64,000 nt of DNA, taken from Desulfovibrionales bacterium (GTDB lineage: Bacteria > Desulfobacterota > QYQD01). The notes below the pieces were generated by a model. It made no database searches and was not told the DNA's origin. It saw nothing but the letters and a program-made list of their open reading frames with translations. This document shows positions 13,360 through 64,000 of the stretch, piece after piece. Each line of letters begins with the position of its first letter. Within the stretch, counting starts at the first letter, position 1. The position numbers and the translations under genes were made by a program. The stretch spans positions 98,810 through 162,809 of the forward strand of contig JAQURM010000003.1 in NCBI GenBank assembly GCA_028715605.1, in the 5' to 3' direction.

Positions 13360-14235
13360 ATGAAAAAGCTCTTGATGTTTTTGTGCGTCGTGTCCCTCGT
13401 AGCGCTTTGGGCTCCGGCATTTGCTTTGACGGTAACGCCGCTGGACAGCGCCGGTAATTTAGCCCAAAGTCTTGTGGGGCCGGGGGTCACAATATCGAAT
13501 GTTACTTATACGGGAGCAAACGCTGCATCGGGATATTTTACGGGTGGCCTTGCCGCTGGAATTGGCATCCAAAGCGGTATTGTTTTGACCTCTGGGTACG
13601 CTTCCAATCTGAATGGCACATCTAATACTTCAGACGCTATAACGGGTAATAATGGTTTAGCGGGTGCCGCCATGCTTAATGCTTTGATCCCTGGGTATAG
13701 CACATATGATGCCACCATTCTGGGGTTTGACTTCGTAAGTGCCGGGAACTCAGCTTATTTCAATTATGTCTTTGGTTCTGACGAGTATAATGAATGGGTT
13801 GCTTCAAGTTATAATGACGTGTTTGGTTTCTTTTTCAACGGAACGGCTGTTTCAGACAATGTAGCGCTCATTCCAGGGACAACGACAGCAGTTGCCATCA
13901 ACAATGTGAACAATGGATCCAACTCTCTCTATTATAACGATAATGATCCTGGTGACCTATCTCCGATTCCATTTGCTTTTGAATATGACGGGTTCACCGA
14001 CGTGTTTACCGCCAGCATACTAGGGCTGACTGCTGGGAATACATATCATCTGACATTGGCCATAGCCGATGCCGGTGATAGCGTTTTGGATTCCGGCGTT
14101 TTCTTACAGGCAAAAAGTTTTTCTCAAAATCCTGTGAATCCAGATGTCCCGGAGCCCGCGACCATGGTGTTGCTTGGTTCCGGTCTGGTTAGTCTGGCCG
14201 GGTTTGGACGGAAGAAGCTTTTCAAGAAAGGCTAA
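13360..14235 (+). CDS. PEP-CTERM sorting-domain secreted protein (choice-of-anchor-like beta-rich domain)
   Basis: RBS GGGAGGAGG. Signal peptide. C-terminal VPEPATMVLLGSGLVSLAGFGRKK is a PEP-CTERM motif (PEP, TM helix, basic tail). Confidence 0.8.
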   Translation: MKKLLMFLCVVSLVALWAPAFALTVTPLDSAGNLAQSLVGPGVTISNVTYTGANAASGYFTGGLAAGIGIQSGIVLTSGYASNLNGTSNTSDAITGNNGLAGAAMLNALIPGYSTYDATILGFDFVSAGNSAYFNYVFGSDEYNEWVASSYNDVFGFFFNGTAVSDNVALIPGTTTAVAINNVNNGSNSLYYNDNDPGDLSPIPFAFEYDGFTDVFTASILGLTAGNTYHLTLAIADAGDSVLDSGVFLQAKSFSQNPVNPDVPEPATMVLLGSGLVSLAGFGRKKLFKKG

Positions 14236-14262
14236 AAAAGAGATAATCAAAAACCATAAAAA

Positions 14263-14296
14263 GCCACCTCGGGGGAATCCCCAAGGTGGCTTTTAT
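14263..14296 (+). terminator. Rho-independent terminator
   Basis: gccacctcggggg aat ccccaaggtggc followed by ttttat. Confidence 0.7.
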
Positions 14297-14647
14297 ATTC
14301 TATGATGCTTTTCTTAGATTTCTTTAGTTTCAGAGTCAAGCGTTTCATTATACCAACTATCTCCGTAATGTCTCATCGGTTAACTTAATTCCATCTATCT
14401 CCATAAGCTTCTCAGATACCGGCATTAGTCCAAATCCTTGGGCTTCGCATTTCCTCCCTTTGGCAGATGGAGGGTAGGAGGGATTTTAAATAATGTTTTT
14501 TGCGCAAAATTGCTATCTTAAAGATCACATCGAGTCATGGTTATCAGGGGTGATTCATTCGCCTCTGGGCAGGGAGAACGCGGGGCATCAGGATAGAAAA
14601 AATATACGCAAGTGCAAAAAAAGAATTGAAAAGGTAGTTTACAAAAA

Positions 14648-14686
14648 TTGGAACTATTTTTCACAAAAGTGGAAATACTTTTCCAC
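14648..14686 (+). promoter_or_regulatory. Tandem palindromic upstream activator sites (paralogous to 13130-13168)
   Basis: ttggaactatttttcaca and gtggaaatacttttccac (a perfect GTGGAAA..TTTCCAC palindrome). Confidence 0.6.
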
Positions 14687-14708
14687 TCAAGAGAAAATTT
14701 TGTGTATC

Positions 14709-14724
14709 TGGCATAAAGATTGCT
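14709..14724 (+). promoter_or_regulatory. Sigma-54 (-24/-12) promoter TGGCAT-N5-TTGCT
   Basis: ctggcataaagattgctt. The flanking 250 bp are paralogous to the 13060-13330 region. Confidence 0.7.
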
Positions 14725-14785
14725 TATTGTTGAGTCACAATTCATTTTGATTAGATATGGTCTCATAAATTTTAGATAGAAGAAG

Positions 14786-15367
14786 ATGAAAAAGATAATA
14801 TTATTAATCGGTTTTGCAGTAATGTTGGTATTTGTAAGTGTCGCCCATGCGGCTCCTGTCGTAGATATTATCCAGGCTCCTACTGGATATTTTGTGCCTA
14901 CAGATGCGCAAAAGTATGATTATCCGTATTATCGCTGGTATGGCGAAGATTGGGGTTGGACACACAACGCCATTAGCGGGTCCATTACATCTGCGACTTT
15001 GAACATTAGTGCATTTGATGTGGATTATTCATCGGGTGAGCTGGATGAGATTTTCGCTTGGGACAGTGGTGCGTGGAGTTCACTCGGGTTTTTGACTGGT
15101 GTAGATGATGATTGGTCTTATGCGACATTTACATTGGGGTCGAGTTTCTTCGATGATATTGGTGCTGGTCTTCAAGTTTTTATGAAAATAGATACCGCTG
15201 ATGAGGGATGGGCTGTTACGCTTGCCAAATCAGTTCTTTCAGTCGATGGAGGTACGTTACCCAATCCCGATCCCAATCCTGTCCCCGAACCCTGTACCAT
15301 GATTCTCTTCGGTACTGGTATAGCGGGAGCTGCGGGCTTACTGAGAAAGAGGAGTAAGAAAAGTTAA
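14786..15367 (+). CDS. PEP-CTERM sorting-domain secreted protein
   Basis: Signal peptide (AVMLVFVSVAHA). C-terminal PVPEPCTMILFGTGIAGAAGLLRKRSKK is a PEP-CTERM motif. Confidence 0.75.
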   Translation: MKKIILLIGFAVMLVFVSVAHAAPVVDIIQAPTGYFVPTDAQKYDYPYYRWYGEDWGWTHNAISGSITSATLNISAFDVDYSSGELDEIFAWDSGAWSSLGFLTGVDDDWSYATFTLGSSFFDDIGAGLQVFMKIDTADEGWAVTLAKSVLSVDGGTLPNPDPNPVPEPCTMILFGTGIAGAAGLLRKRSKKS

Positions 15368-56099: not shown

Positions 56100-58025
56100 G
56101 TGGAGAACGTAAGATATGATGTAAGCCTTATTACAGAACATGATACCTATCTTTTTAAAGAAGGAAATCACTTTCGACTCTATGACAAACTGGGGTCGCA
56201 TGCGACGACCGTAGGTGATATGCGGGGTATTTACTTTGCCGTCTGGGCGCCGAATGCGCATAAGGTGTCCGTAGTCGGAGATTTCAACGGATGGGTTCCG
56301 GAGGCCCATCCCTTAAGGTCAAGGGACGATAGCTCCGGTATATGGGAAGGCTTTATCCCCGGTATCGGCCGGGGTGCGCTCTATAAGTACCATATTGTTT
56401 CGAATTACAATAACTATATGGTAGATAAGGGAGATCCCTATGCCTTTCTATGGGAGGCTCCTCCGCGAACTGCCAGCGTGGTGTGGGGCCTGGGATATGA
56501 ATGGAACGACGGGGAATGGATGAAAAACCGACGCCATCATAACAGGCTTGACGCCCCTTTTTCCATCTACGAGGTTCATCTGGGATCATGGCGCCGGGTG
56601 CCGGAAGAGGGCAACCGGTTTCTCACCTACCGGGAGATGGCACATTACCTGGCGGATTATACAAAAGAGATGGGTTTTACCCATGTTGAATTATTGCCGG
56701 TAATGGAACATCCCTTCTACGGCTCCTGGGGGTATCAGACCCTGGGATATTTTGCCCCTACCAGCCGGTATGGGACTCCCCAGGATTTTATGTACTTCGT
56801 TGACCATCTCCATCAGAATGGAATCGGCGTTATCCTGGATTGGGTGCCTTCGCATTTTCCGAATGACGAGTACGGACTTATCTATTTTGACGGCACGCAC
56901 CTTTATGAACATGAAGACCCCAGGAAGGGATTTCACCCCGATTGGAACAGCGCCATTTTTAATTATGGCCGTAACGAGGTGAGAAATTTCCTTATCAGCA
57001 GCGCCCTCTTCTGGCTTGACAAATATCATATTGACGGGTTGAGGGTGGATGCCGTGGCCTCCATGCTCTACCTGGACTATGCGAGAACTGGTGGAGATTG
57101 GATACCGAATGAATACGGGGGGAACGAGAATATAGAAGCGATAAGCCTTATAAGAAGGTTTAACGAGGCGGTTTACGAAAATTATCCAGATGTTCAGACC
57201 ATGGCGGAAGAGTCCACCGCCTGGCCTATGGTTTCACGGCCGACATACGTGGGGGGCCTCGGATTCGGCATGAAGTGGAACATGGGCTGGATGCACGATA
57301 CGTTGGATTATTTTTCTATCGACCCTGTTTTCAGGAAGTATCATCATGACCAGCTTACCTTCAGTCTCTGGTATGCCTTTACAGAAAATTTTGTTCTCCC
57401 TCTTTCCCACGATGAGGTGGTTCATGGAAAAGGCTCGCTGTCCGGAAAGATGCCCGGGGATGAGTGGCAGAGGTCTGCCAACCTCAGGCTTTTGTTTGGA
57501 TATATGTACGGTCACCCCGGAAAGAAGCTGCTCTTTATGGGCGATGAATTCGGGCAGTGCAGGGAGTGGGTCCACGAAGAGAGTCTGGAATGGCATGTCC
57601 TTGAGTATCCCGCTCATCATGGGGTGCACAGGTGGCTCAGGGACCTGAACCACTTTTACCGGAACGAGCCGGCCATGCATGAGCTGGATTTTGAGGCAGA
57701 GGGTTTTGAGTGGATAGACTTCTATGATTGGGAGCAAGGCAGTATAAGCTTTATAAGAAAAGGCAAAACCACGGACGATATGATCCTGGTGGTCTGTAAC
57801 TTTACGCCGGTTCCCAGAGAGAACTACAGGCTCGGGGTCCCGCGGGGAGGCTTCTGGCGAGAGGTCTTAAACAGCGATGCCCGGATATATTGGGGGAGCA
57901 ATTGGGGGAATTCCGGGGGCGTTGAAGCAGCCCCGGTTCCGGCGCATGGGAGACCCTATTCTCTGTCCCTGCGGCTGCCTCCACTGGGTGTTCTCTTTTT
58001 TAAAAGTGAGGGGCATAGAAGATAA
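56100..58025 (+). CDS. glgB: 1,4-alpha-glucan branching enzyme (GTG start)
   Basis: GAGGAGG lies 6 nt upstream of the GTG. CBM48 and GH13 motifs ([37 protein letters not shown]). Confidence 0.95.
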
Positions 58026-58345: not shown

Positions 58346-59845
58346 ATGAAGAGGCGAGGAAGCGGCATATTGCTCCACATCACATCCCTGCCTTCATCTT
58401 ACGGTATAGGGGATTTGGGTCCATCGGCGTACCAGTTTGTGGATTTTCTTTCTGAAGCCAGACAGGGCTTCTGGCAGATACTCCCCTTAAAGCCTACCAG
58501 TACGGCGCACGGGAATTCTCCCTACAGCAGTTTTTCCGCCTTTGCGGGGAATACGCTCCTTATCAGTCCTGAGCGCCTGGTAGAGGAAGGCCTTCTCTCA
58601 AAAAGGGATGTCGAAGACTGCCCTCCGTTCTCTAATGAAATGGTTATCTACGAGGCCGTGACCGGGTACAAGACAGAACTTTTTCGCGCCGCCTATGGCA
58701 ACTTTAAAAAAAGAAGGCAAAAAGATTGCGACTTTGAAGAGTTCTGTAATGAGAATCGCTACTGGCTGGATGATTATGCCCTGTTTGTGACTCTAAAGGA
58801 AAGTTTCAGCGGGGCCATCTGGGGCGAATGGCCGGAGGATATCAGAGATAGAAAAGGGGATATAAGTAAAAGGTTAAAGGGCAGGCTTAAAGACAAAATT
58901 GAGATGGAGAAGTTCCTTCAGTATGTATTTTACAAACAGTGGCATTCATTAAGGGCTTACTGTAATAGCAGAGACATCCAGATAATAGGAGACATTCCTA
59001 TCTATGTGAATTACGACAGCGCAGACGTATGGGCCAATCCCCGGATATTCAAATTGGGCGAAAACAGAAGACCGACCTTTGTGGCCGGGGTTCCCCCCGA
59101 TTACTTTAGCAGCACAGGCCAGTTGTGGGGTAATCCGGTTTATAATTGGGAAGCCCTGAAGAAAACCGGCTACGCTTGGTGGATAAGGCTTATAGAACAC
59201 AACCTGAAACTCTTTAATATAATCAGGCTTGACCATTTCAGGGGGCTTGTGGCCTATTGGGAGGTCCCGGCCGGTGAAGAGACGGCTATAAATGGGAAAT
59301 GGGTAGAAGTCCCGGTCCGGGACTTTTTCGATAAGCTTTTGAAACATTTTCTCTCCCTTCCCATTATTGCTGAAGACCTGGGGATTATAACCCCGGATGT
59401 ACGGGAAATCGTTGACCTATACGGATTTCCGGGGATGAAGCTGCTCCTCTTTGCCTTTGGTGACGACCTGGCGACGAATCCTTACGTGCCGCACAATCAC
59501 GTAAAAAACTGTGTGATATATACAGGAACGCATGACAATAATACGGCTAAGGGATGGTTCGGGAAAGAGGCCAGACCTGAAGATAAGCGGAGGCTTTTTC
59601 AATACCTGGGGCGGGAGGTCTCAGAGGAGACGGTTCACCAGGAACTCACAAGGATGGCCATGATGTCCGTGGCCGATCTGGCTATCATCCCCATGCAGGA
59701 CATCCTTGGCCTGGGGGAAGAGGCCCGGATGAACGTCCCGGCCACGGCCGACGGCAATTGGGGCTGGCGGCTCTTACCGGAACAATTAACGCCTTCCCTG
59801 GCTGCCAGCCTTTCAGAACTTACCCATATTTATGGAAGGGCGTAA
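58346..59845 (+). CDS. malQ: 4-alpha-glucanotransferase (amylomaltase)
   Basis: RGSGILLHITSLPS..GIGDLG, GD.P and GTHDN GH77 motifs. Confidence 0.9.
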   Translation: MKRRGSGILLHITSLPSSYGIGDLGPSAYQFVDFLSEARQGFWQILPLKPTSTAHGNSPYSSFSAFAGNTLLISPERLVEEGLLSKRDVEDCPPFSNEMVIYEAVTGYKTELFRAAYGNFKKRRQKDCDFEEFCNENRYWLDDYALFVTLKESFSGAIWGEWPEDIRDRKGDISKRLKGRLKDKIEMEKFLQYVFYKQWHSLRAYCNSRDIQIIGDIPIYVNYDSADVWANPRIFKLGENRRPTFVAGVPPDYFSSTGQLWGNPVYNWEALKKTGYAWWIRLIEHNLKLFNIIRLDHFRGLVAYWEVPAGEETAINGKWVEVPVRDFFDKLLKHFLSLPIIAEDLGIITPDVREIVDLYGFPGMKLLLFAFGDDLATNPYVPHNHVKNCVIYTGTHDNNTAKGWFGKEARPEDKRRLFQYLGREVSEETVHQELTRMAMMSVADLAIIPMQDILGLGEEARMNVPATADGNWGWRLLPEQLTPSLAASLSELTHIYGRA

Positions 59846-59887: not shown

Positions 59888-60310
59888 TCAGGATGGATTG
59901 CCACCGCCAAACCCCATGATTCTTTCCGTGAAAGCAACAAGATTATCAAGATCGCTTTTTATGACGGATTTAACAATCTCTATATCCATCCTTTGATACT
60001 GATGAATGACGACATTTCGAAAGTGGACCATTTTCTTTAATTTTTCTGTAAGAGCGCTGTCGATGACGGATTTCTTCCGCAGGAGGTCAAAACTCTCGGC
60101 GCTGGAAGTTGGGATTCCCATTTTGTGTGCTTTAATAATATGATTTGCCAGGTCGAGCGCCTGTTCGCATGCCCGAAGGATATTTAAGACAGCGGCATCC
60201 TGCCGGGAGTAATCCTCATCAAATCCCTCCGGATTTTTCATATACTCCTCTCTTGCGCGTTCTATGCAGCGTTGAATGCTTTGTATTTTATTAATCACAA
60301 TGTCATTCAT
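59888..60310 (-). CDS. hepT: HepT-family (DUF86) RNase toxin of a type VII toxin-antitoxin pair
   Basis: Rx4HxY motif RNVVIHQY. 4-nt overlap with upstream mntA. Confidence 0.8.
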   Translation of the reverse strand: MNDIVINKIQSIQRCIERAREEYMKNPEGFDEDYSRQDAAVLNILRACEQALDLANHIIKAHKMGIPTSSAESFDLLRKKSVIDSALTEKLKKMVHFRNVVIHQYQRMDIEIVKSVIKSDLDNLVAFTERIMGFGGGNPS

Positions 60311-60720
60311 ACATTAAAAGCCCTCCTGGTCTCAAAGAATGACTGTAAAATATCCCTGCGTTCCTCGCTTAATTTCTGGTAATAAGAAAGGACGAGCATT
60401 TCGAATTCATCGGTGGCATATTCATCGGCACAATAAATTCGGCGACCGGCAACGATAACTTCCTTCTGGAGGATAGTGGAAACCTCTCGTAAATTGATCA
60501 AATCCACATCCTTATTCAACAAAGATTCCAGTTCAAAACGTAAGTCGCTTATCATTAGAGAGCCTGCCTCTTTTGCCTTTTTCCATGGCAAAAGCAGCGC
60601 AATATCGACATCACTGTCCGGCCATTCCTCATCCGTGCCGTATGTGCCGAAAATATAAATGGCCTGTAAATCGGGATAATACTTAAGAGAGGCCTTAATA
60701 ATGACATCCCTTGCGTTCAT
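60307..60720 (-). CDS. mntA: MntA-family nucleotidyltransferase antitoxin
   Basis: GTYGTDEEWPDSDVDIALL minimal NTase motif (GS/T-x9-DxD). Confidence 0.8.
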   Translation of the reverse strand: MNARDVIIKASLKYYPDLQAIYIFGTYGTDEEWPDSDVDIALLLPWKKAKEAGSLMISDLRFELESLLNKDVDLINLREVSTILQKEVIVAGRRIYCADEYATDEFEMLVLSYYQKLSEERRDILQSFFETRRAFNV

Positions 60721-60821
60721 ACCCTCACCTCGATAATCTTTATAGTGTCGTTGCCGAAGATGTTCAACACTTCCACGGTGATCTTACGCCACCCCCGGCG
60801 CGCATTCGTGATATATACTTT

Positions 60822-60986
60822 TCAACTCCAAGGGGCGGTTTTTCTTGGTGCGGAAGGACCGCCATTCCATACCAATTCAACTTCCCGTTTCTCTTCAAAC
60901 AGCAAAAAACTGTACTTCTCCGGCAACGGCTTGCCCGCTTCGAGATGCCGGGTGATATCCCTGATTTCATTATCAGTCAGTTTCAT
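60822..60986 (-). pseudogene. 54-codon ORF resembling the N-terminus of an N6-adenine DNA methyltransferase (Type III Mod / Type IIG-like), probable gene remnant
   Basis: MKLTDNEIRDITRHLEAGKPLPEKYSFLLFEEKREVELVWNGG, compared with the conserved K.eLtWiGKe methylase N-termini. Ends at a stop 5 nt downstream of the 860-aa gene, with no catalytic domain. Confidence 0.35.
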
Positions 60987-60990
60987 CTGC

Positions 60991-63573
60991 CTATCTGTTC
61001 AGTTCCTTCTCTTCTTTTCCCGCCAGCGGTTTTTTCCTCTGTCCCCTTGTACTAACCTCTCTCGACGCTAAGTAAATGCTGCTAGTCCGTCTTCCAAACC
61101 ATCCTAAGTCAGCGGGATGATCATTAAATCCTTGAACATCATAGGCCACAATTGTTTTTAACTCGATATGAGAGCCTATGTGGTTTCTTATTTCATCAGA
61201 TGCCTTGATTAGAGATGCTTTCGTAGCCGATACATTTTCTTCTGGTTCACAATATCGCTCAAACGATAGCATGGCAATGTCTGGTTGAATTAAATTTATC
61301 TTTTTGATGAACTTATCTACTTCCCCAGGTTTGTTTATAAAAAGAGAAACGCTGAGTTTTACTTCAACTGCATAAAACTTACCGTCAAGAACGCAAAAAA
61401 TATCCATTTCATTTTTTGTCTCAGCATCATCGGACTTCTCAAATAGATCGACCTCTGGTAGATACCAAAAACTTCCTCTAATAAACCGATCATGCAAGAA
61501 TCCCAGAGTCCACAGTACGGGTAAGCCAGTCTGTTTAATTAGTGAGCGATAAACAAAATCATTAAGTTGATATGTCCATCCAAGATCAATAGGCGCTAAG
61601 TATTCCCTGCTACAAATTTCACAGCTATTCTTAATTTTCATGCCATCGAAGCTGCGAGAGTTCGTATGCCCACAATATTGACATCTCCACTGGTGCACTT
61701 GATAGAAGACATTAGTTCTTATTAGGTATTCGAGTGTATCGGTAAGATTGTTCATCATAAAATTTGAAACCTTACCGATATTACTTACATTCAGCTTTTT
61801 CATTAATTTTTCTCTAGTTGGCCGATCATTTGGGAGAAACCCGTTTAGTTTTTCACGGTCATATACGAGATATTTTACCGAATCTTCTTTTCCTGCTCTT
61901 AATACTGCTCTCCAATACTTATTGGTCAGAATTTCATAGGCGCTGGAGAGACTGCCAACCATTGAGATAACACCTCGTAGATTTTGTCCCTTATCAGATA
62001 TCGATAGATCTTGGTAAGAATTCTTCACTATCGAAGCTCGTAAATCATCCGGTGGATACTTGAAGAAATCTAGTACTAGGTGTTGGAAAAATATCTCATC
62101 ATCAGGTAAAGACAAGTTATACAAATACTCTTTATTAATAGATTGGTCACCGATGGGAAAGTCTTCTGTTGTTGGTAGAAGTGCGAGTCGGTGACCGATG
62201 GTAACTTTTCCTAAGTTTTTAGTAAAAGCTCTTACGATTTTACGTCTTCGCGGCAACACCCAGTTGTCAACAACGTTAGAATATCTGGACAAGTTATTGT
62301 GTCTCTGGATATCAAGTTCAACGACCCATTGACCCTTGGCGATGCCCTTGTAACGAGGAGGTATATAGGTGAAATGCGCGGGCTCTTCAGCTGGTAACGT
62401 ATTAGTATCTTCATTTAGTTTGAATGTGGATGTGTCGGTTGATCTTCTAAAGTAACCTGCCTTTAATTTCTTTTTCTCCGGTAATGCAGGTACGTTGAAA
62501 TTTTTTCCAACAAATATCGAGTTGTAGGTGTGCTTACTCAGCTTATCTTGGATTGAGCGCAGCTCTTCTTCGCTATGGCTGTAGCTTCGAATGGAAACCT
62601 TAGCGGGACCGTTTTCTTGTCCCAGGAAATTGTTCTGGTTCAGATATTGACCCAACTGACTTATCAAGTTTTCATCATTGAAAAATGTAGCTTCTATGAT
62701 AAATGCGCCCGGTGTTGTGGCGTAACTAGGAGTGAAATGGCGAGCGTTCCAGAAATGAACTCGATCAAGAAGTGTTTTTCCTATGAAAAGGTTAAAGCTA
62801 TGCGCCCATTCATATGGTTCAACCCGAGGTATAGCTTCGCTATGTGCCGACGCAAGTCTAGCAATTGGCAATGCCTTTCGGTTGCTAAGCGCAGAAAGTA
62901 TATCTGCAATCGAACCGCATCTCTCGGTACCTGCGATGATACGGTCGGATAGATCAGGAGGAACTAGGCAAAGCGTTCGAAAGAGATCAGGGATGGCATG
63001 AGTGACTATGTGAACCTTAAATGCCGTACCAAAGTTATCACTTAACAGGCGATGTGTGGATTCGTTACCGTATTGGGTGATGACGGTAATTTCACTCTCT
63101 GGTTTTTGCCTCATAAAGGACGGATACTGCGCATGGGGGCTTTGGATCGTTGTCATCGATGATATAGGTCTAAAGTAGTGTTGCCAGTCATGAATAAACG
63201 CGCGCCAGTGAAGATCGTCTAAATCATGTTTCCTAATCTCATGCCGTAGAAACGCGATCGGAGAGCACACCCTATCGATTTTTTCGACCAGGTCTTTTTC
63301 CAGTTCAACGTATGTACAAACGAAATCCGGATCGAAAAATTCCAACCACGATTCATAAGCTGGATCGAGGAACTCCATTGAACCAGAAGGAACGATTAGC
63401 GTGTAAGCGCCGGCCCAGCGTGTGTAGGACTCATAGAATAACGCGTCCAATAACATATGATTAACAGATAATTCGTCGTAGGGGACTAGATACGCGATCT
63501 TTATGGGCCGGTTGCTGGTCTTGACCTCAATCGTTTTCCCAAGACTTTGGGGGCGGTCTAAATTCATATTCAT
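60991..63573 (-). CDS. Large AT-rich gene (860 aa) of unknown function with a C-terminal C4 zinc ribbon and a PD-(D/E)xK-like nuclease motif
   Basis: By eye about 36-40% GC against about 53% for the flanks. CQYCGHTN...CEICSREY. EMDIFCVLDGKFYAVEVKLS (D..D/E-V-K). No Walker A, no RT YxDD. Confidence 0.7.
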   Translation of the reverse strand: MNMNLDRPQSLGKTIEVKTSNRPIKIAYLVPYDELSVNHMLLDALFYESYTRWAGAYTLIVPSGSMEFLDPAYESWLEFFDPDFVCTYVELEKDLVEKIDRVCSPIAFLRHEIRKHDLDDLHWRAFIHDWQHYFRPISSMTTIQSPHAQYPSFMRQKPESEITVITQYGNESTHRLLSDNFGTAFKVHIVTHAIPDLFRTLCLVPPDLSDRIIAGTERCGSIADILSALSNRKALPIARLASAHSEAIPRVEPYEWAHSFNLFIGKTLLDRVHFWNARHFTPSYATTPGAFIIEATFFNDENLISQLGQYLNQNNFLGQENGPAKVSIRSYSHSEEELRSIQDKLSKHTYNSIFVGKNFNVPALPEKKKLKAGYFRRSTDTSTFKLNEDTNTLPAEEPAHFTYIPPRYKGIAKGQWVVELDIQRHNNLSRYSNVVDNWVLPRRRKIVRAFTKNLGKVTIGHRLALLPTTEDFPIGDQSINKEYLYNLSLPDDEIFFQHLVLDFFKYPPDDLRASIVKNSYQDLSISDKGQNLRGVISMVGSLSSAYEILTNKYWRAVLRAGKEDSVKYLVYDREKLNGFLPNDRPTREKLMKKLNVSNIGKVSNFMMNNLTDTLEYLIRTNVFYQVHQWRCQYCGHTNSRSFDGMKIKNSCEICSREYLAPIDLGWTYQLNDFVYRSLIKQTGLPVLWTLGFLHDRFIRGSFWYLPEVDLFEKSDDAETKNEMDIFCVLDGKFYAVEVKLSVSLFINKPGEVDKFIKKINLIQPDIAMLSFERYCEPEENVSATKASLIKASDEIRNHIGSHIELKTIVAYDVQGFNDHPADLGWFGRRTSSIYLASREVSTRGQRKKPLAGKEEKELNR

Positions 63574-63599
63574 TTAGCAAAGAAACCTATTTTGTGCAG

Positions 63600-63900
63600 A
63601 TAAAGCCGCTAAGCAGCCACGCAGCGTTTTTGCGTCGGTTGAATTAGCCTTGTGTACGCCCGGCATGGGCCTGAACCCTGCTTAATGTGTTGATACCTTA
63701 GCAGAAGTCCTGGCCGAAGGCAAGGGCGGAATCGTGATCCGCCTGCGGCGGACAGGGAGACCGTCTGAAGGAAGCTGAATATTGAAGCTCCCCGCTGCAA
63801 GCAGCGGGGGATGCGCTCGCTATGCATGTTCACTATTCCGCCTCAGGCGGATGCCAGGTGGGGAGGGGCCAGGGGTGAGAAGCTACCGCTTCCTGAATTA
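63600..63900. other. GC-rich, hairpin-dense non-coding block (candidate structured RNA or mobile-element boundary)
   Basis: Multiple perfect hairpins: CCGCC-tg-CGGCGG, CCCCGCTG-caag-CAGCGGGG, CCGCC-tca-GGCGG. Flanked by AT-rich sequence on both sides. Confidence 0.4.
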
Positions 63901-64000
63901 GATGGCTATTGTTTTTTAATCCCAAAAATCTTTCGGGTCTATATTGAAACGACGTAATATTGCCAAGATGGTTTGAAAGTATATTTCAGTGGATGGGCCA

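Follow-up and report, generated by a model that had tools for sequence, protein, structure and literature searches.

What is encoded by the most AT-rich gene in this stretch of Desulfovibrionales DNA, and what could it do for the cell? The gene is an 860-codon open reading frame (ORF) on the minus strand, close to the right-hand end of the window, by which we mean the whole stretch of 64,000 nucleotides (nt) analysed here (positions 98,810 to 162,809 of contig JAQURM010000003.1). A preliminary description, made from the letters of this DNA, had proposed a horizontally acquired, nuclease-based defence factor. We find that the gene is intact, under purifying selection and of horizontal origin, and that it belongs to a large family of stand-alone proteins that has no name. 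Residues 672-834 very probably form a PD-(D/E)xK nuclease domain, and we lean towards the whole protein being a candidate self-contained sensor-effector of defence, in which the sensor role of the N-terminus and the anti-phage function are both inferred. The parts of the gene are as follows.

60991..63573, minus strand: the 860-residue ORF, a member of an unannotated family of about 830 residues composed of an N-terminal module, a zinc ribbon and a PD-(D/E)xK domain (from the ORF list and 196 homologues)
61714..63573, minus strand: N-terminal module, residues 1-620
61561..61713, minus strand: C4 zinc ribbon, residues 621-671, W629-x-C631-x2-C634 ... C651-x2-C654, with invariant cysteines
61072..61560, minus strand: predicted PD-(D/E)xK nuclease domain, residues 672-834
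61402-61404, 61363-61365 and 61357-61359, minus strand: predicted catalytic residues D724, E737 and K739
60994..61071, minus strand: non-conserved read-through tail, residues 835-860 (from the alignment and the comparison with contig L003)

No Pfam or NCBIfam model matches the protein at E ≤ 1 and no PHROGs entry matches it, in line with the preliminary remark that the ORF holds no helicase, ATPase or reverse transcriptase domain. A word-indexed search returned 196 relatives of 50-100% identity, the full-length ones measuring 810-885 residues; none has a Pfam domain, and those that are named are all called "hypothetical protein". This label is found throughout the family because its members are invisible to Pfam, NCBIfam, PHROGs and PADLOC. 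With a HMMER profile, 1,342 clusters were reached at E ≤ 1e-3 among 1.84 billion cluster representatives (379 at E ≤ 1e-30); since these are clusters at 50% identity, the family counts at least 1,342 of them. Among the best 150 of the 1,342, those proteins that are full-length measure about 800-930 residues, and the family architecture is therefore fixed. Ten distant relatives have no Pfam match either, and match PADLOC models at E 0.0016 or weaker over short segments only. A search of the literature by accession and keyword found no description of the family.

The distribution of the family is patchy, covering Thermodesulfobacteriota, Nitrospirota, Beta- and Gammaproteobacteria and plasmids, and copies from Thermodesulfobacteriota share 50-57% identity over the full length with those from Beta- and Gammaproteobacteria. 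A search of 50,697 phage genomes detected no phage-encoded copy. A 92%-identical sister copy lies on L003, a contig of a Thermodesulfobacteriota metagenome-assembled genome (MAG), and the ratio of nonsynonymous to synonymous substitution rates between the two copies is 0.20. A 66%-identical partial copy lies on a 2,024-bp contig (L009) of an uncultured Methanobacterium MAG, an archaeal bin, and could represent either inter-domain transfer or a binning artefact.

The last 26 residues stand apart from this conserved architecture. Homologues in a 40-sequence alignment mostly stop within a few residues of the Y834 position, and residues 835-860 are absent from its members except for an extension in the L003 copy. 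The codon after Y834 in the window is TTA, where homologues stop; the tail in the window (60994-61071) and that in L003 (6135-6212) are out of frame with each other by 1 nt in an A6/A7 homopolymer; and the tail is disordered in the structural model described below, with a predicted local distance difference test score (pLDDT) below 50. The tail, 26-29 residues long in the two copies, is therefore a recent read-through. In L003 the frame-shifted tail overlaps the following methyltransferase gene (mod) by 4 nt, which mimics translational coupling.

The nuclease assignment draws on conserved residues, a predicted fold and structural matches. C631, C634, C651, C654, D724 and E737-V-K739 are invariant in 40 homologues, and relatives of 22-28% identity keep the C4 cysteines and the D...ExK motif; across 57 members down to 22% identity, the four cysteines and D724 are invariant and E737 and K739 are at least 90% conserved. 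The AlphaFold2 model of the protein, built with 40 homologues (pLDDT 82.9; predicted template modelling score 0.81), contains a restriction-endonuclease-like alpha-beta-beta-beta-alpha-beta core. D724 is located on its second strand (residues 720-729) and E737-V-K739 on its third (residues 732-741), which is the canonical catalytic arrangement. Foldseek against the PDB gave Can2, VC1899 and Cdn1 at E 1e-5 to 1e-3 with a probability of about 1. The best of these matches span 180-210 residues and are CARF nucleases activated by cyclic tetra- or triadenylate (cA4 or cA3); the nearest structural relatives are Can2, Card1 and Can1, ancillary nucleases of clustered regularly interspaced short palindromic repeat (CRISPR) systems.

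At the sequence level the nuclease matches are weak. The window protein has no Pfam or NCBIfam match to the superfamily, NERD is matched by 3 of the 57 diverse members (best E 4.8e-5), and single members weakly match Mrr_cat (0.12) or PDDEXK_10 (0.15). A marginal PADLOC match to CARF_PDDEXK covers residues 717-760 of the window protein (E 0.036), and a distant relative matches the same model at E 0.0026. Sequence-profile searches of the PDB returned chance or zinc-finger matches only, and zinc-ribbon Pfam families gave weak but recurrent matches in many of the 57 members. Both C-terminal features named in the preliminary description are thus upheld: the C4 ribbon by four cysteines that are invariant across all alignments, and the PD-(D/E)xK core by a motif conserved to 22% identity, the canonical placement of D724, E737 and K739 in the model and the Can2-type Foldseek matches. 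Nuclease activity of the domain is a prediction. The ribbon, Q-x3-W-x-C-x2-C-x-H-x-N...C-x2-C (residues 625-654, 61612-61701), also recalls RanBP2/NZF fingers such as those of TRABID, at E 0.1, and we note this as a lead only. Some fingers of the RanBP2/NZF class bind single-stranded RNA or ubiquitin.

The first 600 or so residues gave only generic matches, to alpha/beta domains of Rossmann-like type. In a separate model of residues 1-620 (pLDDT 78.8), two alpha/beta domains occupy roughly residues 12-135 and 158-360, a beta-rich domain follows from about 375 to 490, and the region from about 490 to 620 is helical. The model contains no CARF, SAVED, SRA, TIR, helicase or ATPase fold. Internal duplication among these domains was considered and rejected, with hhalign probabilities below 3%. 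The module carries the conserved motifs RWGG-x3-L-I-V-P, D81-P-D83, DNFG and G265-D-x2-D270-R-x3-W-N276, followed by R-S330-x-S, G-x-W, LPRR and S526-D-K-G, and their conservation suggests a specific site. D81, D83, D270, N276, S330 and S526 are invariant.

The gene was acquired horizontally. Its GC content is 0.416, against a window mean of 0.517 (standard deviation 0.031; 49 ORFs of at least 150 residues), and its GC content at third codon positions (GC3) is 0.402, against 0.574 (standard deviation 0.057; the same ORFs), both the lowest of any gene in the window. Of all segments of equal length, 1% have a GC content this low, and each of these overlaps the locus of this gene. The AT-richness pointed out in the preliminary description is therefore real, in overall and in third-position composition. 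In addition, the L003 sister shares the gene only: homology between the two begins about 20 nt before the ATG and the flanks are unrelated on either side, so the gene moves as a unit between islets. In 19 of 22 loci across the family, the AT content of the gene exceeds that of its flanks; the difference averages 6 percentage points and reaches 16. No tRNA was found in the window. As for attachment-type repeats, an 18-nt inverted repeat (60809-60826 and 63971-63988) is no better than chance at that length; it is 15/18 complementary (83%) and brackets the mod stump described below, the large gene and a repeat element, probably by chance.

About 24 independent loci of relatives were examined for their neighbours. 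All-against-all clustering of the flanking ORFs found no family common to the loci besides the query family itself, and the protein is therefore stand-alone. Most homologous loci lie in surroundings of defence, toxin-antitoxin (TA) or mobile-element type. In L003 the gene is accompanied by a Type III restriction-modification (R-M) system, a ThsB-like TIR protein, 8xMP and two PIN genes; in L021 by an MmeI-type enzyme, BrxR, a reverse transcriptase and HigBA; and in L002 by a DUF4917 protein, an HNH protein and a prophage. Other loci offer an integrase with a type IV secretion system, that is, an integrative conjugative element (ICE; L020), a resolvase and a primase-polymerase (L015), MazE-PIN inside a recBCD region (L016), and a transposase with an AbiU2 fragment (L023). 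A 1,313-residue Eco57I/MmeI-type Type IIG R-M enzyme precedes the family gene in L008 (6063-12526), its stop overlapping the start of the family gene by 4 nt. On plasmids, the company consists of RelE/HTH (helix-turn-helix), a RecB-like nuclease, a helicase and Fic in Piscirickettsia, and of a three-tyrosine-recombinase element and MazEF on a conjugative plasmid of Burkholderia glumae. Nine further genome loci have integrases, a Tn3 transposase with resolvase, TniQ, HepT-like, PIN, SocA, NERD or ImuB. L024 (3328-7512) is a clean example of the family gene arriving with a TA-like pair: an HTH-peptidase M78 protein, a PemK-family toxin and the family gene form a three-gene insertion in a nitrogen-fixation cluster, with draG on one side and draT-nifH-nifD on the other. 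No cas gene occurs among the Pfam-annotated neighbours of these loci. The composition is deviant, the homologues are not consistently confined to housekeeping surroundings and a nuclease fold is matched, which leaves the preliminary proposal of a nuclease-based defence factor standing as a candidate reading.

We consider a defence role somewhat favoured because of the fold, the patchy, AT-rich, island-type distribution, and the TA, R-M and mobile-element neighbours. The N-terminal module would restrain the nuclease and set it free on binding some cue of infection, for example a protein of the phage, a feature of nucleic acid or a small ligand. The released nuclease would then cleave nucleic acid, so that the invader is restricted or the infection aborted, and a dedicated partner gene would be unnecessary. 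A bolder form of this proposal, which we hold only tentatively and regard as somewhat doubtful, is that the family represents a new class of single-protein immune sensor-nucleases. Here, a module of about 600 residues without a described homologue would sense the cue directly and free a Can2-like nuclease tethered by the zinc ribbon, in parallel to Upx or Avs sensing, with unrelated parts and with horizontal spread across many phyla.

Several observations weigh against a defence role. No ligand-binding or recognition fold was identified in the N-terminal module, so the sensing step is purely inferred. PADLOC-DB v2.0.0 contains no significant model for the protein (best E 0.036), and no paper citing the searched family accessions was found. 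The association with defence islands was judged by eye from about 24 neighbourhoods, and in a minority of these (L001, L019, L022 and the P0015 locus) the flanking genes are housekeeping ones or uninformative. Non-defence cargo, moreover, also travels with TA genes and mobile elements.

The alternative that survives best, although rather unlikely, is that the protein is a modification-dependent restriction endonuclease, either a Type II- or Type III-like enzyme whose methylase was lost or a Type IV enzyme whose N-terminus reads modified DNA. The nuclease fold is common to the restriction enzymes FokI, BstEII, NgoMIV, EcoT38I, AspBHI and LlaBIII, and an N-terminal reader followed by a C-terminal PD-(D/E)xK domain is the layout of Mrr/MspJI-type enzymes. 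A DNA methyltransferase gene abuts the family gene at two loci, as a Type III mod in L003 and as a Type IIG enzyme in L008. The window itself retains a trace of such a gene, and the remaining features of the locus are the following.

60822..60986, minus strand: remnant of a Type III-like mod (N6_N4 DNA methyltransferase), 42 homologous and 12 unrelated codons
60307..60720, minus strand: MntA nucleotidyltransferase antitoxin of a type VII TA system (NF047752, Pfam Polbeta)
59888..60310, minus strand: HepT RNase toxin of a type VII TA system (NF047751, Pfam HepT-like)
63590..63900, minus strand: GC-rich composite intergenic repeat, with module A at about 63830-63900, module B at about 63650-63735 and three short GC hairpins
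63916..64000, minus strand: 3' end of an 81-residue ORF with a weak HicA-like match, the rest of which lies beyond the window (seen in the identical contig L018)

Read along the minus strand, the order is the end of the 81-residue ORF, the GC-rich stretch, the 860-residue ORF, a 54-codon ORF, mntA and hepT. Between the stop of the large gene and the ATG of the 54-codon ORF lie 4 nt (GCAG). After the L003 copy of the large gene come a 658-residue N6_N4 DNA methyltransferase (PF01555, 1e-39), a 192-residue ORF with no Pfam match and a ResIII helicase (5e-14); the methyltransferase and the helicase are a Type III Mod/Res module. The 54-codon ORF is 38/42 identical to the first 42 residues of the L003 Mod (E 9e-25), which confirms the methyltransferase remnant named in the preliminary description. 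DNA homology between the window and L003 ends after ...GTATGGAATGGC, near 60857 in the window (mod codon 42-43), and 137 nt of unrelated sequence follow up to mntA. The PF01555 domain (residues 119-425 of the L003 Mod) is absent from the 54-codon ORF and res is absent from the window. By its sequence, then, this ORF is the stump of a gene, a remnant and not a gene. The break at about 60857 indicates that the window lineage lost mod and res by deletion or recombination. The large gene belongs to a small variable islet after malQ, together with the HepT/MntA pair and the mod stump; the Type III R-M module lost from it is still present beside the L003 sister copy.

The idea that a cognate methylase of the large protein had been lost, also raised in the preliminary description, is not supported. 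The mod belonged to a complete Type III Mod+Res system and lies beside the family gene in L003 only, an adjacent DNA methyltransferase occurs in just 2 of the roughly 24 loci, and the clustered flanks contain no conserved partner. Both of the adjacent enzymes, moreover, are self-sufficient R-M modules (Mod+Res in one case, an R-M fusion in the other). The 4-nt overlap with mod in L003 stems from the recent read-through tail and is no relic of an old operon. Without a protecting methylase, a sequence-specific Type II enzyme encoded by a solitary gene could not be maintained. The Type IV version, although rather unlikely, stands.

A non-immune function is also unlikely. The protein would be a nuclease serving the mobile elements that carry it, in maintenance, competitor exclusion, recombination or excision, or an accessory factor of DNA repair. 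Frequent carriage on ICEs, plasmids and recombinase-trio elements or near transposases agrees with such a role, as do the ImuB/DnaE2 mutagenesis cassettes that adjoin the family gene at two loci. On the other hand, the family shows no consistent linkage to a recombinase, transposase or repair gene, several copies have inserted alone among housekeeping genes and not one was found among the 50,697 phage genomes; strong purifying selection across differing elements and hosts is better explained by a trait that benefits the host or is selfishly addictive than by a part in the mechanics of a single element. Very unlikely is a second-messenger effector like Can2 or Card1, whose N-terminal Rossmann-like domain would bind a cyclic nucleotide made by a distal type III CRISPR system, a cyclic-oligonucleotide-based antiphage signalling system (CBASS) or another synthase: cA4/cA3-activated CARF nucleases are indeed the top structural matches (180-210 residues), the PADLOC matches are solely to CARF_PDDEXK models and the N-terminus has Rossmann-like alpha/beta domains, but none of the neighbourhoods examined contains cas10, a CD-NTase gene or a gene for another synthase, the PADLOC matches are confined to the nuclease segment (residues 717-760) and Can2 is only half as large as the protein.

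MntA scores 94.9 bits with NCBIfam NF047752 and HepT 142.8 bits with NF047751, each against a cut-off of 60, and the Pfam matches are Polbeta (5.6e-17) and HepT-like (3.3e-29). Since both equivalog models are exceeded and the genes are adjacent, the pair reported in the preliminary description is a genuine type VII TA system; mntA lies upstream of hepT with a 4-nt overlap, and the HepT translation holds the R-x4-H motif (RNVVIH). Beyond hepT, and convergent with it, are the housekeeping genes malQ (58346-59845) and glgB (56100-58025). At the other end, L018, which is identical to the window at the large-gene locus and continues about 3 kb past the window end, shows two small overlapping ORFs of 125 and 81 residues upstream of the large gene (L018 2468-3083). 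The 81-residue ORF has a sub-threshold match to Pfam HicA_toxin (E 0.0057), and the two may be a second TA pair of the islet.

The stretch at 63590-63900 was described beforehand as a structured GC-rich element. It is indeed GC-rich and has three short GC hairpins, TCCGCCTGCGGCGGA, CCCCGCTGCAAGCAGCGGGG and TCCGCCTCAGGCGGA, but the notion of a structured element is not supported: it folds only marginally better than shuffled sequences (z -1.5 to -2.5), has no Rfam match by gathering score or at E ≤ 1 and is a dispersed repeat. Its modules recur with 82-93% identity at three intergenic sites of L003 (1076-1130, 1276-1362 and 2223-2318), where the copies sit after PIN cassettes, and at an additional site in L018 (1191-1234). 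A complete A+B copy follows directly after a gene stop codon in the metagenome contig L027 (1624-1880), with about 75 nt inserted between conserved parts of module B. The composite repeat (module A, GC hairpins and module B; about 250-300 nt) was seen just 3' of the stops of TA- or defence-type cassettes on Thermodesulfobacteriota-like contigs. An integron attC site was rejected, since folds of the single-stranded DNA show short local hairpins only (z -1.5 to +0.6 for module B), as was an RNA family or riboswitch for want of an Rfam match. The element is best described as a lineage-specific dispersed intergenic repeat, similar to repetitive extragenic palindromes and bacterial interspersed mosaic elements (REP/BIME-like).

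Elsewhere in the window, 13360-15367 is a second low-GC stretch (0.41-0.44) and encodes two PEP-CTERM-anchored proteins of 291 and 193 residues. A further PEP-CTERM protein is seen in L018 just past the window end. Given these proteins, the organism has an exosortase system.

The locus documents the remodelling of an islet, in which a Type III R-M system was reduced to a 42-codon stump with a TA pair at the junction. The 860-residue family is a good, testable candidate for defence, its function being proposed from context and fold. If it is anti-phage, the family would provide a widespread, partner-free nuclease effector of at least 1,342 clusters with an uncharacterised sensing module, and that N-terminal module would be a tractable target in the search for a new mechanism of trigger recognition.

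Regulated PD-(D/E)xK nucleases of a single chain, encoded in defence islets, are of a known kind; the libraries and literature searched gave no description of the present family, of its N-terminal module or of the zinc ribbon inserted in it. Can2, Card1, Can1 and Cdn1 (DUF1887; PDB 8bao, 7bdv, 8q3y, 6wxw, 6sce and 8z4i) are CARF-PD-(D/E)xK ancillary nucleases of type III systems. Compared with Can2 and Card1, the 860-residue protein is about twice as long, has no detectable CARF domain and no significant sequence-profile match (Pfam DUF1887 is not matched at E ≤ 1), carries a C4 zinc ribbon before the nuclease and shows no association with CRISPR or signal-synthase genes at the examined loci. 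Among curated nuclease families, NERD (PF08378) alone gives a recurrent, though sub-threshold, match to members; the window protein does not match it, and NERD proteins have other partners and no equivalent of the N-terminal module. With Type IV enzymes of the Mrr/MspJI/AspBHI type, the family shares a single chain with an N-terminal part and a C-terminal PD-(D/E)xK domain, and AspBHI and Mrr_cat are among its weak matches; these Type IV enzymes are often located beside R-M genes. A precedent is Upx (PDB 9wuf), a single-protein PD-(D/E)xK anti-phage defence whose reported trigger is a phage protein that it recognises directly (PMC13099982, PMC13601566). Like Upx, the 860-residue protein is a large stand-alone polypeptide in which a canonical C-terminal PD-(D/E)xK core is buttressed by large N-terminal and middle domains, and the trigger reported for Upx, recognition of a phage protein, is by analogy the mechanism that may operate in this family.

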